Shown here: positions 2,396 through 38,576 of the stretch, piece by piece | Layout of the letters: the number at the start of each line of letters is the position of its first letter | Numbering within the stretch: position 1 is the first letter of the stretch | From: Vermamoeba vermiformis | Lineage: Eukaryota | Assembly (NCBI GenBank): GCA_045837725.1 | Contig: JBEWZL010000278.1 | Location: 310,001 to 374,000, forward strand | Direction of reading: 5' to 3' | DNA length: 64,000 nucleotides | Notes under the pieces: model-generated | Databases searched by the model: none | Told to the model about the DNA's origin: nothing | What the model saw: the letters and a program-made list of their open reading frames with translations, nothing else | Translations under genes and position numbers: made by a program

Positions 2396-5300
2396 TCAGT
2401 ACACGTGACTAGTGGCAAGAGGTGGTGGTATCTGGTACTTACGCGAAGTGACGGGATTGAGTGCGGCATCAGATCCACTGTTCAAGTACGGCGTGTTGGT
2501 AGCACGTATGACGGGACGAGGGGCAGGGGCGGGGTTGTTGTTCATCGACCACAGGTACGCGAGCACCACTGTCGCAGTGCCAATCAATATAGCGAGCCAC
2601 CAGGCCATGCTCGAGGAGCTAGCGCGGCCCTTGTCGTCGATCACGAGCACATCCGATCCAGAACTCGAGCGCGAGGTGACGAAGATGTGCTCTGCTTGAC
2701 CTGAATCGAGGTCCAAGAACTCAATAGGCAAGCGACGTACAGACACTGAAGGGTCTACTGCTTTGAGTTCGTACGTCCAGGTGTGGGTGGCTGCATCCAC
2801 GCCCACGCGTCGGATCGAGATCAGCTCCGGATTGGTGTTGCGCACACTGAGCTCCTTCTTGGACTGCACTTCGAGCTGCACATTGGCATTGCGCGTGAGG
2901 AAGAGTTCGCGCGGTGCGAGTATCTTGAAGGAGGTGAAGAGCGTGAACTGCTTGTCCGCGGTGACGTGATAGCTCTGCGCGAGATCACTCACTGCTGCGC
3001 GCACGGTGATGGGCTCGGAGATCTTGTCGTGCTTGGTCGCGAAGGGCTTCACGATGCAGTAGTGCTGCAAGCTCTGCGGATTGGTGAAGTTGCGCACAAA
3101 CACGTTCTGCATCTGCTGCGCGGAGGTGAGCGAGCACTTGATGAGCAAGTGGTGCTTGATGGCGGCACTGTCCTCCAGCACCACTCCACTCGCATCGCGC
3201 GGCACCACGGGCATCAAGTACTGCGAGCCATCGGAGGTGAGTTCGTCGTTCTGCACGGCACTGGTGATGGGACTCTCGAGCTCCACACGCGCCACACGCA
3301 CGACTCTGACGTGTGTCCAAGTGAACACGCTGCTGTTGTGATACACCACGGTCTCACCCACACTCACTGCCACTGCTTCACCGGTGTTGCTGTCGATGCG
3401 CACAATGTCCTCATTGGCTGAAGACCACGTGTTCTTGTAGAGTGCCTTGTCCTGTGCGAAGGAGGTCGAGAACTGAATCACACCACCCACGTGCACGGTG
3501 GGGGACAGTGGGGCGATGGCATTCGACACGCGGATCTGCAGGTGATACTTGAGCACGGCCGCGGTCTGACTGGCAGTCACGGCAATGGTGGGCAGCGACG
3601 AGTGACCGCGCAGTTCGAGCAGTGCGTGGCCAGGTCTCAAGCCGCGCACAATAATGTAGCGCGATGTGGCTCTGTCCGTGTCGCTGGTGGCATTGAGCGC
3701 ACTGGCATCGTCGAGCAGCGAGGCAGAGCTGAAGTGTTGGGAGAGTGCCACGAGCTGTGGGTGACTGAGCTGCGAGTCCACGTGCAGTGCTTGCGGACTG
3801 AAGGCGTGGAGCACGTGACCGAGATCATCGCGTGCTTGGAGCTGCAGCAGCATGGAGGAGCCCACGGGGAGATCGTAGTAGACGAAGGGGAAGTGCGGGG
3901 GCAAGACGAGCGGCACGAGCTCAATGCTGCTGATGAGGCGCACACTGACGCGCACGAGCACGCTGCTGCTGGGGTCATCGCCACTGTTCTCTGCACCCTC
4001 TGAGGGATTGACAGCGTCATCGCGCTCAGTGATCAGAATCAACCAGGTGCCCACGGTGTTGTGCGTGGTGATCACTCCGCGAGCATTGACGTGCAGCTCC
4101 GAGGTGAGTTGTGCAGCACTGGCAGGCTGTTGAGTGCCGCACGTGACGCAGCTGAGCAGCTTGTACTTGAGCTTGGGATCGTTGTTCTTGTTGGTGTGCA
4201 GCTGATAGCTGGTCTGCGGGGCCAGGAACAGATGTGCAGGACTCAACAGCTTGAGCGGATCACTCACGTGCACCCACGCGGAGGCAACAATGGGCTCGAG
4301 CACGTGAGAGCGCGGTCGGATGAGTGCGGTGACATTCTCCACGCGCACTGAGACCATGGTGCGACCTGCGCCCACGCCTCGTCCACGCACGGTGACACTG
4401 CGCTCTTCGTCGAGAGTGACATTGGCGGAGTGGTAGATGGGCAACAGCTGCAGCACGGAGGGATCGACCACGGACCACTTGACGCGCATCCACTCGAGGT
4501 GTGTCCAGGCAGTGGGCGTGACTTCAAACATGTGCAGACGATGGTCAAAGTACGCGGTGAGCACGCCAGTCAAGCGGAAGGTGAATTCATTGCCCGTCTT
4601 GAGCACGTAGCTGTCCGCGTGTATCTTGAAGTCTTGGATGTAGCCGACGATCAGTTCAATGCTGTCCTCGGAGATGATCACGTGACGATTCACGGTCTGA
4701 TCCCACACCGAGCAGTGCACGCGCAGACGAGTGCGACCCTCAACCAGGGCTGTGACCGCCCCTGAGGTCTTGTCTACCAGGGCTACAGTGGTGTTGTCGA
4801 CTTGGAACACAATCTCCGAGGGCACGGGAGGACCACCGCGGAGTGCAATGTGGTACTGACTGCCCACCACCATCACGTGCTGCGGGCGAGGGTGCAGTTC
4901 GAGGGGCGGGAACACGTGAATGGTCTTCAAGCCTGTCACGTAGCGGGGTTGCGCCACCTTCTCATCACGTGGACTGGCACGTGCAGTGACACGCGCGACA
5001 CCGAGCTTGAGACCTCTAGCGAGCCACGTGTTCTCAGTGCGGTAGTCGTGCGACATGTGCGCGAGATCTTCAGCGCGAGCAGGGGCAATGTCAATGCTGT
5101 CGCTGTCGATCAGCAGCTGCGTGTCGATGAAGCGGTACTGCGACTGATCGAACGGCTGTCCATTCATGTCCAAGAGATCGACCAGCACGGGGATCTGATC
5201 GCCGATCTTCACCATGTCACGTGATCGCAGTTGTACGGCGTGAATGTCCGAGATTTGAATCTGGCTGAAGGAAGGCTCCGAGCCAGTCAAGCACAAATCT

Positions 5301-8300
5301 ACCAGGGTCAACTTGACGTGTCCCGGTCTGAGTGGTGTCACGTGGATGACATTTGACCCGAATTGGTAACTGATGTTCGCGACAGTGGTGTCGTTGACAG
5401 TGAGCTGGAAGTAGCCGCTGCCGCCGAGTGCGGTGATGGGCACGGCGTTGTGCGGGTGATTGAACAGCGACAGACGCGGGGGTTGTGCTTGCACATTTCT
5501 ATATAAGGTCAATTCAATGTCACGTGTCAACTTCTCCGTGGTCGAAGCTGTCCAGTAGGGCATTTGAATCTTGGAGGCCGCGAGAGTGTCGGGATCATAG
5601 CCCACCACGCGAACTCGTGCAATCACTGAACCTGTGGCACGTGGCAGTCAGTACGAGAGATTGCCTTATTTGGATGCGTACCTTCTTTGAGGGCCAAATT
5701 GAACAGCCGTCCGTGTCTGTAGCTGTGAGTGTCTAAACATGGGTGTTAGTACCTCCGGTGGCATTACCAAAGTAGGCAAGTGTCGTACCCTTGATGAGCT
5801 GAGCAATGAGCTGACTGCCCTCGGTGTACAAATAAGGAAATCTGGGTCTGTTAGCAGCGAGCAGATCAATGCTCATGAGACCACTCGCCTCGGTGACACT
5901 CCACTCCACATTCAGCGAGGTGAAGTTGGTGAACTTGCGACCAGATCTGTCGTACAGATACACTTCAAACTCGATCGATTGGTTGTTGCGCGTCAAGAAT
6001 TTGGTCGGGAAATTTCCGAGCATTTCACGAGTGACTTCGTGATTGGCAAGTGGCAACATGGAGACAGCTGTGACATAATAAGGTGAGTGACAAGCGTGAC
6101 AGGTGTCAAAGCCGTACCTTCAGTGCAGGCGAGGGGCAGGTCGTTGCGGTCAATCTTGTTGGGGTGTTCGAGCACGGGGAACAAGAAGATGTGTTGCGGC
6201 AGTTGACAGCTGAAGTGGAACTTGCTCGTCACGCGCAGAGGGCGAGGGTGTGCGGCACTGCCCGAGTTGGTGACCTCCACAGTGATGTCTTGATCGCCGA
6301 GCTCCAAGCACGTGATCGAGTAGGCGCGGTACGGCGTGTTGGCCTTGAGCTTGTGAATGGCGACAGCATTGGGCTGTTGGGGCAGCAGTGCCTCCGTGGT
6401 GTGGCCCGAGGACTCGTAGGTCCAAGGATTGGGTCCGCCCTCCAGCAGCACTATGGCACTGGAGCCCAGTGTGACCAGGGCAAAGTCACGTGGCCAGACA
6501 ACGCGCAGAGGCTTGAAGCTGAACACCGTGACCTCGATGCGGAGATTCATGTAGTGCACGGTGACTGTGGTCTGACCCTCGCGCAGTGCACGCAACACAC
6601 GGTGCGAACAGTGCTGACCAGCGCCAGTGCTGGGGAGAGGTGCGAACACGTGCTCGTCTTGCACCTCCCACACGAAGGGCAGGGCGGAACAATTGTCGTA
6701 GGGCACGTTGTTCTGATCGTAGAGCTGCACGGAGAGTGTCAGCGTGCTGTCAACTTGACACTCGAACTCGGAGTTGGCGAATTCAATTCTGTGCGGAGTA
6801 GACACGTGAACGAGCACGTGATCGCGATTGATGGGATTGCGACTGTCACTGGCATGCACGGTGACTGAGCCCGTGGACTCCGCGACGAGTCTGCCGTGAT
6901 TGTTGGAGATGAGCTGCGCATTCTGGGCAGTGGCGTGCGTGGCAGGACGTACGAGCACCACACTCTGATCGGTGCTGTACCACTCGTAGAGTCCTGTGCC
7001 ACCCACGGCAGTCAATGTGAGCTCGTGGCCCCAGCCCTGCACATCGCGCACACGTCGCACATTGACATTGGTGATATTCGGCTCAATGCTGTCCAACTTG
7101 CCGCTGTAGTAGTTGAGCCAGGCCACGTGATTGTGGTACGCGAGATTGACGTGTCGCACGCGCGTGTTGTCGTGTGCTGTCAACTTGACGGGTGCAGTGA
7201 TGATGACGTCACTGCGCGTGAGGAGTGGCGGTGAGGGCTGGTACTGCGTGGCGGTGTAGCGGTTGCGGATCTGTTCCAGCGCGACCACAATCTCCGTGGC
7301 ACCCTCTTTGACAGCTGTCACGTGGTGTTGCGCGCTGTTCTTGGACTTGCCGAGCACTTGGAAGTAGTCGGCACTGAGCTGCACGTTGAAGTCGAGGTCG
7401 TCAATGTTGTAGATCTTGTGCCCGTCCTTGTCGTACACCTCAATCTGCACCACGTACTCCCAGCCACTGATCAAGTAGCTGCCGCTGCTGGTGTGCGCAT
7501 CGAGCACGTGACTCTTGTTCTCACTCGTCTCCAACTGCTTCGGAGTGATCTTGAGCGCGAGATAGGCCGGCAGCACCACGACGAGTTCACTCCACGCGTT
7601 GTTGTCCTCCAGATCCACGTACTGCGCCGTGACGCGTGTGGCACCGACTTGCTTGGCCGTGACGAGACCCTGCTGACTGACCTCTGCCACTTGATTGTTC
7701 GAGGTCGTCCACAAGTACAGTCCTGCCGTGCTCGGATCCAATGGCTTCAAGGTCTCTTTGGCGTAGCTCATCAGCGTGTACTGGATCTGCGTACCTGGCA
7801 GCACCCAAATAGTGGTCGAGGGTGCCAACAAGAGGGGTTCGCGCACTGCAATCGTCACTTGCGCGGTGGGCACGGGGCCAGTCATGAACGGATTCACGTA
7901 CTTGGTGAGGCGCGATGAGACGCGTGCGCGGCCAGTGTTGAGTCCCTGCACGAGCACGATACTCGACTGCTTGCCTTCGTCCTCTAAGCGCAGCAATGCC
8001 TCGCTCACCTCGATCGAGCTCTCGCGGAATCGCACCATCTTGAGCACTTGCGCCACCGCACTGCTGGCAGTAGCTTCGGTGTCAGCGCGAATAGACCATT
8101 CATATTCGAGGCCCTCTAAGCTCGAGAACAAGTTTCCTTCGAGATCGAATGCTTGGATCTGCAGAATTTCCGTGTCTTCTTTGAACATGGTGCGTGTAGT
8201 GGTGAGGATGTCAATCTTGACTATATGGTCCACATAGATCTCGCAGCGCAGCAATCGACCGCTCTGCAAGTGCTCGCCCAACAGCCACACATTCTGACGG

Positions 8301-8709
8301 CCTTGCGACACTGTGCTTGCGGCGCGGATCTGGATCTTGGTGCCGCATGTGTCGAGCTCTTTAATGTCCACTACACCTTCTCTGCTTAAGCTCCTGTAAT
8401 GGCACCGAAATTAGCCAGTTGACGTTAATTAATTTTCGCCGATCGCATCCACCGCCAAAATTAATAATTTAAAATAAAAAATATCTGTGGCTCACGAGAA
8501 TTATAATATTGTACGAATAATTACCATTTGAAACAGCCATTATAGGCCTCAATAACATAGCTGACTTTGTGATCGTGGGGCAGCAAGACAGAGACCGTGC
8601 TGATCGAAATATCAGTGCCTACAGTGGAGGAGAGCTGCGCACTGATGAGCTGACTAGCGCACAGCACTAGTAGTAATATAGTTGCGTAGTATCGCGTTGA
8701 ATTGCCCAT
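2396..8709 (-). CDS. NUP210: Nuclear pore membrane glycoprotein 210 (gp210), spliced
   Basis: Signal peptide MGNSTRYYATILLLVLC, then YVIEAYNGCFKW, LRCEIYVDHIVKIDILTTTR and QAFDLEGNLFSSLEGLEYEW. Many Ig-like (BIG2) WxSSN motifs, one C-terminal TM helix and a short tail. Built from ORFs 8521-8742, 5993-8371, 5733-6059 and 2396-5626. Confidence 0.92.
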
Positions 8710-33445: not shown

Positions 33446-33511
33446 CGTAAAATTAAAAATGACCAGACTGAAGTTTGTTACTATCCTTTATTGTCACACA
33501 TCACCGCCACC

Positions 33512-34049
33512 ATGCAGTCACTCTTCAAACATACAACCACTCTATTCAGAAATTGCTCACAACAAACAACCCGGCTCACCGCCACTGTTGAAGTGCGTGT
33601 CAGATCAACAGCTTAGATCAATTACAAAAATCAACAAATAATTATTATAACAATCAAACACGATTCACTACAATATATTTGTTAATTCCCGGCAATTAAC
33701 CACCGTTGAAAGCAGAGTATTAATTCTAATTTATTTTTTAGATGAACAAAACTCAAGTAATGACTAAATACAAGCTGAAGTCCAAGGTACGTAACTAAAA
33801 TTAATTATTTAATAATTTAATAACAAGCAAAACTCTTGCTAACGCGGATCTGTACAGGGAGCAGTGAAGAAGAGATGGCGTTTACAAGCCTCAGGCAACA
33901 TTAAGACCTGGCCCTCAAATAAGAATGGCAACTCTTCAGTCTATCGCGTCACTGGCATTCCCAACAATCACCAGCTGCTTAAGCCGCTCATGCAAACACG
34001 CGCTGGATCCACTCCTGCTGAACGAGTGCTCAAGCACGAAGAACTATAA
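33512..34049 (+). CDS. Mitochondrial ribosomal protein bL35-like, spliced (3 exons)
   Basis: MQSLFKHTTTLFR presequence. Spliced KYKLKSK|GAVKKRWRLQASGNIK resembles the L35 KxKT.xAVKKRF+xTxSG motif. Confidence 0.65.
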
Positions 34050-34830
34050 TTGAACAGTCCCTATTGTATATATAACTCATATTAGGCCTGAACAACACCA
34101 GCGATATTCTAACTCACAATAAACTAACTTTTGCTTGCAACAGATCCATGAGTTCTACAACACCTTGTACTGACCTCTACAGCGCTCTGATTGAGTTGAA
34201 TGGAGCCATAAATGCATATAGCCGAGTATTTGATCGATGTGCATGCATTTCATCCATGCTTCTATGCTGTTGCTTCGAAGCAAGTCAAATGCAGTCAGAC
34301 GTGGGAATACTGTGGCTACCGTGTGCAGGTGAGAAGTGAAGCCACCAACGAGCTAAGACAACAAACAGTAGTCTCTTGTGCCCCCAGAGCGTATTATCTG
34401 CAGAAATTTCAGCCGATACATCATGCGTCTGCGGTGCCATGGAAGCTGCTAGAAACTGCTAGAAAGTGGGACCCTCTTTTCTACCCAAACTTATTACCAC
34501 GTCATCGTAAGCATCGAATTGAACTGTTTCGTGGTCACTTAGTGGTTGCAATACGAATGGTATGTCGCTGAGCTCCTGTTGGGAAATTTGACTCGCAAAT
34601 TCGGCGGTTAATGAATTAAATGAACGACGAGCAAATGGTCTGGCGAAACATTAGTAGGAACACATTTGAGGAGGGATGTGTCGACATGCCGACAGCCGTC
34701 AAATGAAAAATCAAAACAAAAGAAGGCGCGCTGATTGGTCAGCTGTCATCGATTGACATGCGGCCAACAAAACCATTTCTGGCGTTCAGTTTCATTTACA
34801 ACTTTTTTTTGATCCTTCAACGACCCCACA

Positions 34831-35982
34831 ATGTCCAAGACCTTGTTGCTTGTCGCTGTTTTGGCTTTGGCATCCGTTGCCATCGCCCAAGTCTCTCAAC
34901 AGACTTTCACTTGCATGTTTGGCGCCCGTGTTGGCCAAAGAAGCGCTGCTTGGATTCCTCACGTCAACAACGGTAAGTAGTGTGGAAATTTAATGCCAAT
35001 AATTGGAACTTTTCACGACGATATCGTTGGATTGGACCAAAAGGTTCACATTATTGTGTTGCAACCTCATGCGGAATCATCGAATAACATTTCCTATTTG
35101 CCTAGCTATGAACCGTTTCGGTATCAACACCCCTGCTCGTATTAGGTAAGATTCTGAATTAAATTCTTTGGCAATTGATTTTAATCTGACTTTTTTCTGT
35201 TCAGAATGTTTATGGCTCAAACCGGTCGTAAGTTTATTTGCTATACACACCTCAATGCATTAAATGCAACCATCGTTGCTTGATTTCGTTCGTCCCACAT
35301 CTGTCTATCCGATTTTTTTCGGCACCGAATACCGAACTCATTTTAATTTCTCGCAGACGAGACTGATGGTTACAACACCTTTGTTGAGGTAAGTCTATTA
35401 GTTTATGGTCCAATATAGGACTTTGGATTCACGAAAGGGACCCGCTAACGAAATTTGCTTTAGTACACCAACAGAGACGGTACCAACGCCTGGTGCCCTC
35501 GTTATGAAGGTGGCTGCCGCTTCAGAGGACGTGGTGCTATGCAATTGACTCACCGCAGCAACTACGCCAACGCTGGTCGTGCTTTGGGTCAAGACTTTGT
35601 CAACAACCCCGATCTCGTTGCTCAAATGCCTTGGGCTTTCTTGACTGCTGGTTGGTTCTGGCAGACTCGCAACCTCAACAGCTTCGCTGACCGTGGCGAC
35701 CTTGTTGGAGCTACTCGTGTCATCAACGGTGGTACTAACGGTCTTGCTGATCGTCAAAACAGATTCGCTGTTGCTCAACGCTGCATTGGTGGTGCTGGTG
35801 GTAACCCCAACCCTCCTCCTCCTCCCGCTGGTGGTAACTGCCAAGTCACTGTTCGCTCTGGTGATACCCTCGGTGCTATCGCTGCCAGACACGGCACTAC
35901 TGTCGCTAACATTCAGCGCCTCAACCCTTCCATCACCAACCCCAACTTGATCCGTGTTGGTCAAGTCATCCGTGTCTGCTAA
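34831..35982 (+). CDS. Secreted glycoside hydrolase family 19 (endolysin/lysozyme-like) with a C-terminal LysM domain; exons 34831-34972, 35106-35145, 35205-35227, 35357-35388, 35464-35982
   Basis: Signal peptide, [63 protein letters not shown], a Pro linker and Lys[41 protein letters not shown]. All four introns are GT-AG and frame-consistent. Confidence 0.95.
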
Positions 35983-36107
35983 GGACCTCTTGACTTATTT
36001 TGTATTTTGGTGACATTATAAAAGCTCTTTGAGAAAATTCTCGGCTCATAATTATAAGGAGGGTAAAAATAGGATCCGTGTTTTTTTATTTTGTCAGTAA
36101 TAAAACT

Positions 36108-37527
36108 ATGGAGAGCACAGAGGATCCAAAGCATGAAGGACAAGCGAAGGCCACGCATGACGCGTGTCCTGAAGATCGAGAGGAGATCGGACGAGCAAAG
36201 AAATGCGAGGGTTGTCCTGGTCAAGCTCTATGTCAATCTATGAGCCGCACTGACCCAGGTAAATTAATATCAATATATATTGAACGAATATAATCAAACA
36301 CAACGCTGACACGTGGATCTTCAGATCAGGAGGCGTTAGACATTCGGATGCGGGCAATAAAACACAAAATTATAGTAATGTCCGGAAAAGGAGGTACGTG
36401 GTGCGGATTTTGGTATTATGCCCTGCTAATTAAATTATTAATTTTTAAAATTATTGTAAAAAGGCGTTGGAAAATCAACAGTTGCAGCACAAATAGCTAT
36501 TGGCTTAGCGGAAAGAGGAAAAAAGGTTGGTATTCAATGAAGATAGTTCGTTTATAATATCGGTGAGTCTCTAACGCTAGTCATTGAAAGGTCGCAGTAT
36601 TGGATGTCGATATTTGCGGACCCAGCATTCCAAAGCTATTACGTGTTGAGAACTCCGAGATTGTCAGTACACAGTGGGGCTGGACTCCTATCAAGTACGT
36701 GCCTATTTAATCGAGACTACTTCGTTCTAATAGTACACATTCGTCTACAGATCTCCTGTTCACCCTAATCTAATTGTCATGTCTATTGCATTCATGCTCA
36801 ACAGTCCTAGTACGTGCATGATATATAAATGTGATAGTATTAATATCACCACAGACATGCCTGTTGTGTGGCGAGGACCGCGCAAGACAGCAATGATCAA
36901 ACGGTTTTTGAAAGAAACATTCTGGGGCCGACTCGACTATTTAAGTACGTCGCTCAATTACTAGGCTTGTCGTGTGTTATTATCGGCAACATCTAATTGT
37001 TATGGCAGTTATTGACACACCACCGGGCACATCTGATGAACACTTGTCAACTCTCATGGCACTCAGCAACGCCAAACCAGACGGAGTACGTGATATTCCA
37101 TATTAACATACGCACGCTAACACCCTTCAGGCCGTGCTCGTGACTACGCCGCAAGAAGTAGCGCTGGACACGGTGAGCAAAGAGATCAATTTCTGTGCCA
37201 AGATGAACTTGCCTGTGCTCGGTCTCGTGGAGAACATGAGCGGCTTCGTGTGCCCTTGTTGTAATGTACGGCCAATGACACGTGTCAAATACAGACTCAC
37301 ACGACTAACTCTACATTGCACAGGAAGTGACAGATATATTCAAGAACGGTGGAGGTGTCAAAATGTCGCAGCAGTTTAACGTCAAATTGCTCGCTCAAGT
37401 GCCGCTTGACCCACGCATTGCGCAGTCAGGTGAGCAGGGCGAGTCAGTGTTCAGCACGCTGAATGACTCACCAAGTGTGCTCGCGTTGAATGGCCTCGTA
37501 GAACAAGTTCTTGCAGTCACACCTTAA
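36108..37527 (+). CDS. NBP35: Cytosolic Fe-S assembly P-loop NTPase Nbp35/NUBP1-like, spliced
   Basis: N-terminal C-x12-CEGCP-x4-C cluster, [45 protein letters not shown] and [11 protein letters not shown]. Confidence 0.9.
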
Positions 37528-38576
37528 TAGTGGATTGCCTTATACGGTAATCGGCTTCACTGTAAATACTACCCAAGCATAGGAATTGTACTATAAATTA
37601 TTGCCATATGGACGCTGTTATAGTCTTTAAAAAGGACATCAAGTGTTATTAGATCGGCATAACATTCGATAACTCCTCTCGTCTAAGACGGCAAAATCGG
37701 TTGGATTTTCAACAATAACTTTCCAACTAAAAAGCCTATATGGTAGAGCTATTAGATACCTCACAAGACGTATGTTGTAATGTGCCTGTTTCTAGCTTTA
37801 AATTAATGTAAGTTGATCTGATAAATATTACTAAACTCCGTTGGATTGCCACTACCTAGGTAATTTATTTCTTCTTAACGGATTATAAAAAAAGCCGATT
37901 GTTTTATACAGAAGTTTAAAGCGACGTTAAGCGATGGGAGTAACTACCAGGTAACGCACTTTGAAAGCAGTTTATTGTACCAGATTTAAAAATGGGTAAC
38001 ACAACGGTTGGGGTAATACACCTAGTCCTGGGATACCAGAAGACTTCTGCTTTCATTTCGTGGGTGGTCTGTATTGATTTATGGGGCCATCATCTCCTAC
38101 GATTGGAACGTACAATCCACCGTCAGGGTTTCCTCCTTCAGCTTCGAAGTCGGTGCAGCAGCTCATTGTAAAAGAATAGTTGTCCATTTGTAGTGTAGTA
38201 TCGGGTTATGTACTTTAAACAAAGCAAACTCGCAGTTTTAAATTTAACCACCGTGTACCAAAAAAGTAAGTATTGGTTTCAAAGAAACAGTAGTGTCGCG
38301 TGGTTCTTCGAAACATATCCGCAGATTAGCTAATTCTTGTACTTATCTTTCGGTAAGTTCTAGAACCTACGATGAACATACTAACGGCCGAAACTAGTTC
38401 GGTTTTAGTGCTGAATTTTCGAGTTACCAAAAAGAGAAGCTACTTCCACGAACAAATGTAGAGGTCACTGTGTGCCGCTTGAGCGGGAGCACTTCAAAGT
38501 GACCGCTCTGGGCAAGGTACCTCGAAAGTAGCTCCAACCAAGTGTTAAATCAAAACGCCAATATACACAACCACAT

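Follow-up and report, generated by a model that had tools for sequence, protein, structure and literature searches.

A strongly expressed, intron-bearing GH19-LysM gene of the amoeba Vermamoeba vermiformis encodes a probable lysozyme of the endolysin branch

The gene at positions 34831..35982 of the Vermamoeba vermiformis DNA analysed here, a stretch of 64,000 nucleotides (the window), encodes a GH19 domain that sequence, profile and predicted-fold comparisons as well as phylogeny assign to the endolysin type, not to the chitinase type. The gene is strongly expressed and integrated in the genome of an echinamoebid amoeba, and we consider its product to be probably an endolysin-branch lysozyme that enters the secretory pathway. 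GH19 has been divided into chitinases (CHIT) and endolysins (ELYS) by Orlando et al. (2021, PMC8547705; this and the other papers given by PMC number are cited for parts of their text), who state that ELYS has not spread beyond phages and the bacteria they infect. The amoebal gene extends this branch into eukaryotes.

After joining of its five exons, the gene (plus strand throughout) reads as a frame of 251 amino acids free of stop codons, with the ATG at 34831 and the end of the stop codon at 35982, in exact agreement with the coordinates of the preliminary description. The introns measure 133, 59, 129 and 75 nt, all are of the GT..AG type, and their phases are 1, 2, 1 and 0. Exon 1 (34831..34972) holds the start codon, a putative signal peptide, the first GH19 helices and Cys28, and is followed by intron 1 (34973..35105), the position of which is common to the paralogues C179 and C266 described below. 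The same holds for intron 2 (35146..35204) and intron 3 (35228..35356), the latter lying within the His69 codon of the GHET motif. Between these introns, exon 2 (35106..35145) encodes residues 48-60, including Ile54 at endolysin-pattern position 33, and exon 3 (35205..35227) residues 61-68, the catalytic helix as far as the His codon. Exon 4 (35357..35388; residues 69-79) contributes the catalytic acid Glu70 and base Glu79, and intron 4 (35389..35463) has no counterpart in C179. The last exon (35464..35982) contains the Cys90-Cys97 loop, the GRG and QLT motifs, the INGG helix, a Gly/Pro linker (~residues 188-204), the Cys-flanked LysM and the stop codon. A 3' untranslated region is placed at 35983..36037 by a poly(A) run after 36037, seen in one contig of RNA run X1 only.

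Splicing of the gene was observed directly in RNA. In the raw runs X21 and X23, all four introns appear as joints (291-487 and 704-1110 reads per joint, respectively), and in the joint table of RNA contigs four of four were found for X1 and three of four for X7; the X1 contig matches the window exons without difference in the listed pieces. The four introns read from the DNA, one of them splitting the catalytic H|ET, are thus borne out. Furthermore, the protein is identical at 245 of 250 aligned residues (98%) to P0054, a transcript-derived V. vermiformis protein in EukProt. Joints on the opposite strand also occur in the RNA reads and are regarded as artefacts that arise in library preparation when a transcript is very abundant. 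In the two raw runs, the last exon was covered at depths of 821 and 1707, while none of the 26 bins lying outside the gene exceeded 10 and 16, respectively. The best-expressed neighbour is surpassed 50-100-fold, a contrast that is possibly inflated since both runs stem from one study of another strain (most reads 90-95% alike) and its divergence may under-count the neighbours. Codon usage points in the same direction, the codon adaptation index against the genome's own actin being 0.62 for the gene and 0.23-0.44 for ten neighbouring exons (nine of them at or below 0.29), with effective codon numbers of 36.3 and 40.1-60.1, respectively. Both the unusual codon bias and the high expression proposed earlier were therefore recovered. 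As the bias follows that of the host actin, it is a sign of high expression and not of foreign origin, and a reading of it as a donor signature was rejected. Actin-family matches numbered 123 genome-wide, among which six score identically and show no intron in the matched part, indicating a large actin expansion.

The gene sits on a 506 kb contig among ordinary eukaryotic genes (95 frames scanned): NUP210, PIKfyve, p24, Vps26, eIF4G, a cation efflux gene upstream and an NUBP-type NTPase downstream. NUP210 (window 2399-8410, minus strand) comprises two very long exons of ~1080 and ~800 codons, and its GC content of 57-59% differs from that of the intron-rich middle of the window (42-46%). Between the cation efflux and GH19 genes (window ~33500-34100) lies a gene that is small and weakly transcribed, seems to contain introns and matched none of the families tested. 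The downstream gene (window 36109-37530, plus strand), which begins ~70 bases past the poly(A) site, is iron-sulfur scaffold-like, with ParA-family matches and an N-terminal cysteine motif, and is presumably NUBP1/Nbp35-like. The bacterial look of the domain is the sole argument for contamination by bacteria or an error in gene calling. Either is scarcely conceivable in this setting: both are refuted by reads spliced at four introns, and the eukaryotic flanks, the paralogues with common introns and the transcripts in two amoeba genera all speak against them. Nor is this a phage endolysin in the strict sense, which would sit in the lysis cassette of a phage or prophage; the gene is nuclear, spliced and surrounded by eukaryotic housekeeping genes.

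The encoded protein consists of a putative signal peptide (residues 1-19; a hydrophobic stretch and an A-x-A site, as judged from the sequence), a GH19 domain (~20-188), the linker and the LysM (205-251). All motifs quoted in the preliminary description are present, and both domains exceed their Pfam cut-offs when the last exon is searched (GH19, PF00182, E 3.4e-15, 56.9 bits, cut-off 25.5; LysM (CBM50), PF01476, E 1.7e-15, 57.1 bits), while NCBIfam gave LysM-level matches only, under cut-off. The mature protein is 25 kDa and strongly basic (pI ~10.9), without N-glycosylation sites, and its six cysteines would form three disulfides (28-186, 90-97 and 205-251). Glu70, Glu79 and Thr108, the acid, the base and the water-binding Ser/Thr, align with E49, E58 and T130 of the SPN1S endolysin, and the catalytic pair is intact. 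The fold was examined in an AlphaFold model of the 98% identical P0054 (pLDDT 87.8) in place of the window's own joined protein. With Foldseek and VIA-align, the top four folds for this model were endolysins (Z 24.3, 23.7, 21.0 and 20.7) and the best chitinase reached 19.5; the GH19 fold superimposed at Z up to 24.3 with an rmsd of 2.3 over 168 residues, and the LysM at an rmsd of 0.8-1.9 over 45-48 residues. The most identical solved match of the LysM in the fold list is that of an algal chitinase (54%).

The same preference was seen in every sequence comparison. Among PDB sequences, endolysins or lytic enzymes take the first five places, at E 1e-27 to 1e-17, ahead of the first plant chitinase at 5e-17, and the best PHROG match is an endolysin (E 2e-55). 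Profile scores were 176 bits against 20 endolysin-type rows and 45 bits against 17 bacterial chitinases, the former being inflated because the endolysin profile was built partly from matches found with the same family. Global identity ranged from 28 to 43% for endolysin-type rows and from 15 to 29% for bacterial chitinases. Three of the 20 endolysin-type references, none of them a characterised enzyme, lie at 0.40-0.43 and so within the ELYS link criterion of at least 40% global identity; characterised ELYS enzymes lie at 0.30-0.37, and none of the 17 chitinases is above 0.29. From the ESM Atlas came GH19 clusters of phages and bacteria, at 0.95, along with generic LysM clusters; both are treated here as leads only. 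By IQ-TREE, with bacterial chitinases as the only outgroup, CHIT split off at 100/100 and the amoebal clade fell on the ELYS side; plant chitinases were compared through PDB searches only, and the chitinases in the trees are all bacterial, as opposed to those of CHIT 13-17 (fungi, animals, oomycetes). The earlier placement of the protein with the endolysin branch rather than with chitinases is hence upheld by PDB matches, fold, profile, PHROG and tree alike.

At the level of diagnostic residues, the ELYS pattern positions I33 and G118 are present as Ile54 and Gly96. R109 is absent, its segment being exchanged for the Cys90-Cys97 loop, and at position L/Y173 the M173 of SPN1S aligns with Asn151, as in characterised ELYS rows, flanked by Leu150 and Phe153. 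Because the ELYS rule, which asks for three of the four positions, has two exceptions among twelve enzymes (PMC8547705), the loss of R109 represents a variant and not an exclusion. The chitinase pattern (C97, C105, F/L/W151, G190, G192 and F/Y222), counted from motifs and from alignment to bacterial chitinases, is represented at no more than two of six positions, where CHIT needs four and 62 of 63 characterised chitinases have them (PMC8547705): position 151 is occupied by Phe138, which is also seen in myxobacterial ELYS, C97 possibly by Cys90, and the other four are missing. The Cys90-Cys97 loop occupies the site of the chitinase loop-3 disulfide, Cys90 aligning with C97 and the second cysteine being a different one, and Thr71 and Val131 are chitinase-majority residues. 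Overall, the domain reads as a short endolysin of the myxobacterial-cyanobacterial type minus an 11-residue hairpin.

Beyond what the preliminary description noted, the gene is one member of a wider amoebal clade, with varied binding modules and four copies in the genome. A profile search identified 31 proteins at 181-380 bits, with the next at 160 (among the best 120 of 6101). The Cys loop motif occurs in 69 of 453 proteins, near-duplicates counted, and is absent from all 106 domains taken from loci of prokaryotes and phages, and the hairpin motif is kept in a single one of 62 clade domains compared to 433 of 507 others. All named clade members are transcripts of Vermamoeba and Echinamoeba exundans, echinamoebid amoebae of two genera in one order, and several members, e.g., L120 and L122, have intron-split genes. 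Their tails vary and include LysM (in many), hevein repeats (P0077 and P0187), cysteine-rich modules and C-terminal hydrophobic segments, and P0090 has a weak SH3_3 match. On the short contig L121, a VanY-type D-Ala-D-Ala carboxypeptidase frame (3-905) lies directly upstream of a divergent clade-type GH19 frame (469-1437), and the two appear to constitute a carboxypeptidase-GH19 fusion across two frames. In pattern-limited scans, 185,579 prokaryotic genomes yielded 29 matching stretches, in none of which the clade patterns were confirmed; a second scan of prokaryotic and viral sequences confirmed them in one of 56 stretches, which is 33% identical and falls outside the clade in IQ-TREE. At a further 58 loci, scanned without motif check, GH19 matches were 27-45% identical apart from one 37-residue piece, and no clade member was found.

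The genome contains four GH19 loci: the gene at 34831-35982, C179 (GH19 alone), C266 (GH19-LysM) and C261. The three intron-bearing copies are 55-62% identical in the domain and share introns 1-3 in position and phase; these introns therefore predate the duplication. In C266 (L004), an intron after codon 78 lies two bases before intron 4 of the window gene, in the region of the Glu79 codon and in phase 1 as opposed to 0, which could reflect intron sliding or independent gains. C261 (L002:1447-2253, minus strand) is intronless, lacks the catalytic His-Glu pair and has a degenerate LysM-like tail, but its type is conserved in 11 cluster members and is transcribed in Vermamoeba (P0331). Judging by these features, it is likely an inactive wall-binding or regulatory copy, and perhaps a retrocopy. 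Three of the five LysM matches in the genome are in unrelated frames without GH19.

Outside the echinamoebid clade, endolysin-type GH19 domains, some with SH3b, were identified in three proteins of Willaertia magna and four of Naegleria lovaniensis (P0164, P0335-P0338, P0340 and P0346, two with adjacent locus tags). This set lies near myxobacterial LysM-GH19 proteins; the member used as query is 66-69% identical to named myxobacterial proteins, and in IQ-TREE the set groups with Myxococcota rows at 99/94. Under the model, the AU test rejects a single origin for this set and the amoebal clade (p=0.008, for groups defined once a first tree had been seen), and the Naegleria/Willaertia set is probably a separate, younger acquisition. 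Six further endolysin-type proteins (P0015, P0096, P0128, P0185, P0199 and P0432), several with signal peptides and extra cysteines, are possibly a third eukaryotic group. One of them has two GH19 domains, P0128 carries a GH25 fusion under cut-off, and P0199 combines VanY and GH19 in one chain.

Long residence of the gene in its lineage is supported by the three intron positions common to the paralogues, by the divergence of these and by the orthologue in Echinamoeba. A horizontal origin through an old transfer from a bacterium or phage is likely, as the range is patchy and the site-mixture tree nests the clade: in IQ-TREE (LG+C20; 80 chosen rows, 172 columns, 10 bacterial chitinases as outgroup, two long-branch inactive paralogues left out), the clade was recovered at 100/99 and nested among prokaryotic or presumed prokaryotic endolysin-type rows by nodes of 90/92 and 80/95. 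By FastTree (318 of 528 domains, clustered at 78%), it was instead sister (97) to the 288 other endolysin-type rows, a position that would suit a deep GH19 lineage of its own, intermediate between chitinases and endolysins and retained by some amoebae. An AU test with the clade forced outside all endolysin-type rows does not reject this origin (p=0.234), and the pattern residues form a mosaic. Still, we find it rather unlikely, considering that the site-mixture tree with ten chitinase outgroups nests the clade, that a stem as long as its own (0.67) is prone to being drawn towards the outgroup, that named members are limited to two genera of one order, and that the sequence is that of a hairpin-less short endolysin, with an intermediate in P0096, where the Cys loop is present and the bacterial HES motif is kept. 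A grouping of the clade with P0096 and P0015 was absent from the tree and not rejected (AU p=0.139). The closest named prokaryotic matches are myxobacterial and cyanobacterial (33-42%), no donor was found for the clade among the prokaryotic and viral sequences covered by the pattern-limited scans, and in 121 cyanobacterial genomes no chitinase-type match was found at E 1e-20. Of the old horizontal acquisition put forward in the preliminary description, the age and the endolysin side of the GH19 phylogeny thus stand, and the horizontal step, with nesting among prokaryotic ELYS that is not firm, is likely.

As to function, we think it reasonably probable that the protein serves as a secreted cationic muramidase in the digestion of bacterial prey. 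The signal peptide would direct it to food vacuoles or to the outside, the LysM and the basic charge would hold it on the GlcNAc-containing glycan strands of the wall, and the GH19 domain would cut the beta-1,4 MurNAc-GlcNAc bond of prey peptidoglycan by an inverting two-glutamate mechanism. The ancestral gene was probably acquired from a bacterium or phage before the split of Vermamoeba and Echinamoeba, after which introns would have been gained, the gene duplicated and binding modules swapped. The peptidoglycan-cutting chemistry is deduced from relatives with assayed activity, which are muramidases: PaGH19Lys (9EOI) acts on peptidoglycan but leaves chitin intact (PMC12329726), and the myxobacterial C25GH19B is a lysozyme with a pH optimum of 4.5-5 (PMC9098779). 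P0161, 40% identical to the amoebal GH19 over 161 residues, fits C25GH19B by E79/E88 and by 54% identity to the LMM01 enzyme. Bacterial walls as the target are further indicated by the LysM, SH3_3, carboxypeptidase, GH25 and VanY partner domains. An enzyme with an ELYS scaffold, a loop-3-like disulfide and chitin-binding modules might also act as a chitinase, or as a dual chitinase-lysozyme, on fungal prey or chitin detritus. This is favoured by the Cys90-Cys97 loop at the site of loop 3, which is tied to chitin-oligomer affinity (PMC8547705), and by one characterised endolysin-type GH19 that takes chitin too (PMC8547705). The hevein repeats of two clade proteins and the nearness of the Cys-flanked LysM to LysMs of algal and fern-ally chitinases point the same way. 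Wheat-germ-type hevein and LysM modules, however, also bind peptidoglycan, and with folds, profiles and tree on the side of endolysins and so few chitinase-pattern positions present, a chitinolytic or dual role, although the most serious alternative, appears unlikely. Profile searches of the genome, which are blind to introns and carry no weight in this argument, gave no candidate for chitin synthase (PF03142) or GH25 and one GH18 match under cut-off. Remodelling of the cyst wall at encystment or excystment, the other use suggested earlier, would agree with a protein predicted to be secreted and glycan-binding, and a GH19 domain remodels the cyst wall of Toxoplasma (PMC11804682). We nevertheless consider it very unlikely: the wall of a related amoeba, Hartmannella glebae, is given as 64.7% protein and 4.2% cellulose (PMC9511172), and actin-like codons and very high depth in two RNA samples would fit a bulk trophic enzyme.

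The muramidase reading provides a concrete and abundant candidate for the breakdown of prey walls in a very common amoeba of water systems, in which the choice of bacteria that are digested shapes which survive inside. Expression and assay of this small, basic, disulfide-bearing enzyme should be straightforward, and the combination of an endolysin scaffold with a chitinase-like loop offers a natural test of what governs substrate choice in GH19. More tentatively, and with somewhat more doubt than confidence, we propose that endolysin-type GH19 enzymes may be an overlooked major class of digestive lysozymes in bacterivorous protists, acquired at least twice. One acquisition would be the old echinamoebid clade, which has a disulfide loop of its own, shuffled LysM, SH3-like, hevein and membrane-anchor modules and an inactive copy, and whose enzymes may act on peptidoglycan as well as chitin. 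The other would be the heterolobosean set, taken more recently from predatory myxobacteria, and there may be a third eukaryote-like group.

Co-option of lysins by eukaryotes is a theme already known, and GH25 and amidase cases also exist. The T4-like lysozyme family of bivalves, which we take to be GH24, belongs here as well. A study of Trichomonas reportedly describes a laterally acquired toolkit that targets peptidoglycan, mentioning family 19 and lysozyme activity, and may hold a direct eukaryotic GH19 precedent. No paper on the present gene or clade was found in the literature searched, supplements to which could bear on novelty, and a term search of the main text of the Vermamoeba and Echinamoeba genome papers gave no chitinase, lysozyme or peptidoglycan. 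The phage-type lysozymes of bivalves (PMC5303276) resemble the amoebal gene in that a phage-type lysin in a eukaryote underwent intron gain, fusion and duplication, but are T4-like animal proteins of shown activity, whereas the gene described here is a GH19 of an amoeba with a predicted activity. The lysozymes of Dictyostelium presumably do the same job in another bacteria-eating amoeba, and GH19 is not among the four families listed there (Aly, C-, Entamoeba- and viral types; PMC13399256). The family and catalytic core are shared by the GH19 genes of MAST-4 flagellates, which rank with the most strongly expressed glycosidases in that bacterivore and are filed as chitinases able to act as lysozyme, without subfamily assignment in the parts of the paper seen (PMC8237690).

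The closest known systems are bacterial and viral. With ELYS enzymes (SPN1S, 4OK7; PaGH19Lys, 9EOI; PWe2, 9MS7), the amoebal protein shares the fold (Z 21-24), the Glu pair and Gln/Thr core residues, the lack of chitinase loops 1, 2 and 5 and of the C-terminal loop, and a LysM partner, which occurs in ELYS 1, 13 and 22 (PMC8547705). It differs from them in being eukaryotic, in its four introns, signal peptide and six cysteines, and in the Cys-closed loop that takes the place of the R109 hairpin; the three putative disulfides are absent from cytoplasmic phage endolysins. C25GH19B (PMC9098779) is, like the amoebal protein, a short, exported ELYS GH19 without the 3-helix bundle from a predator of bacteria, at 40% identity, and LysM partners are common in the myxobacterial group. 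The myxobacterial enzymes are, however, bacterial, keep the hairpin and are not the sister group in the tree, and their LysM is N-terminal in P0140, in contrast to the C-terminal LysM of the amoebal protein. Plant and bacterial GH19 chitinases share the family and the catalytic core, and scored lower in every comparison made.
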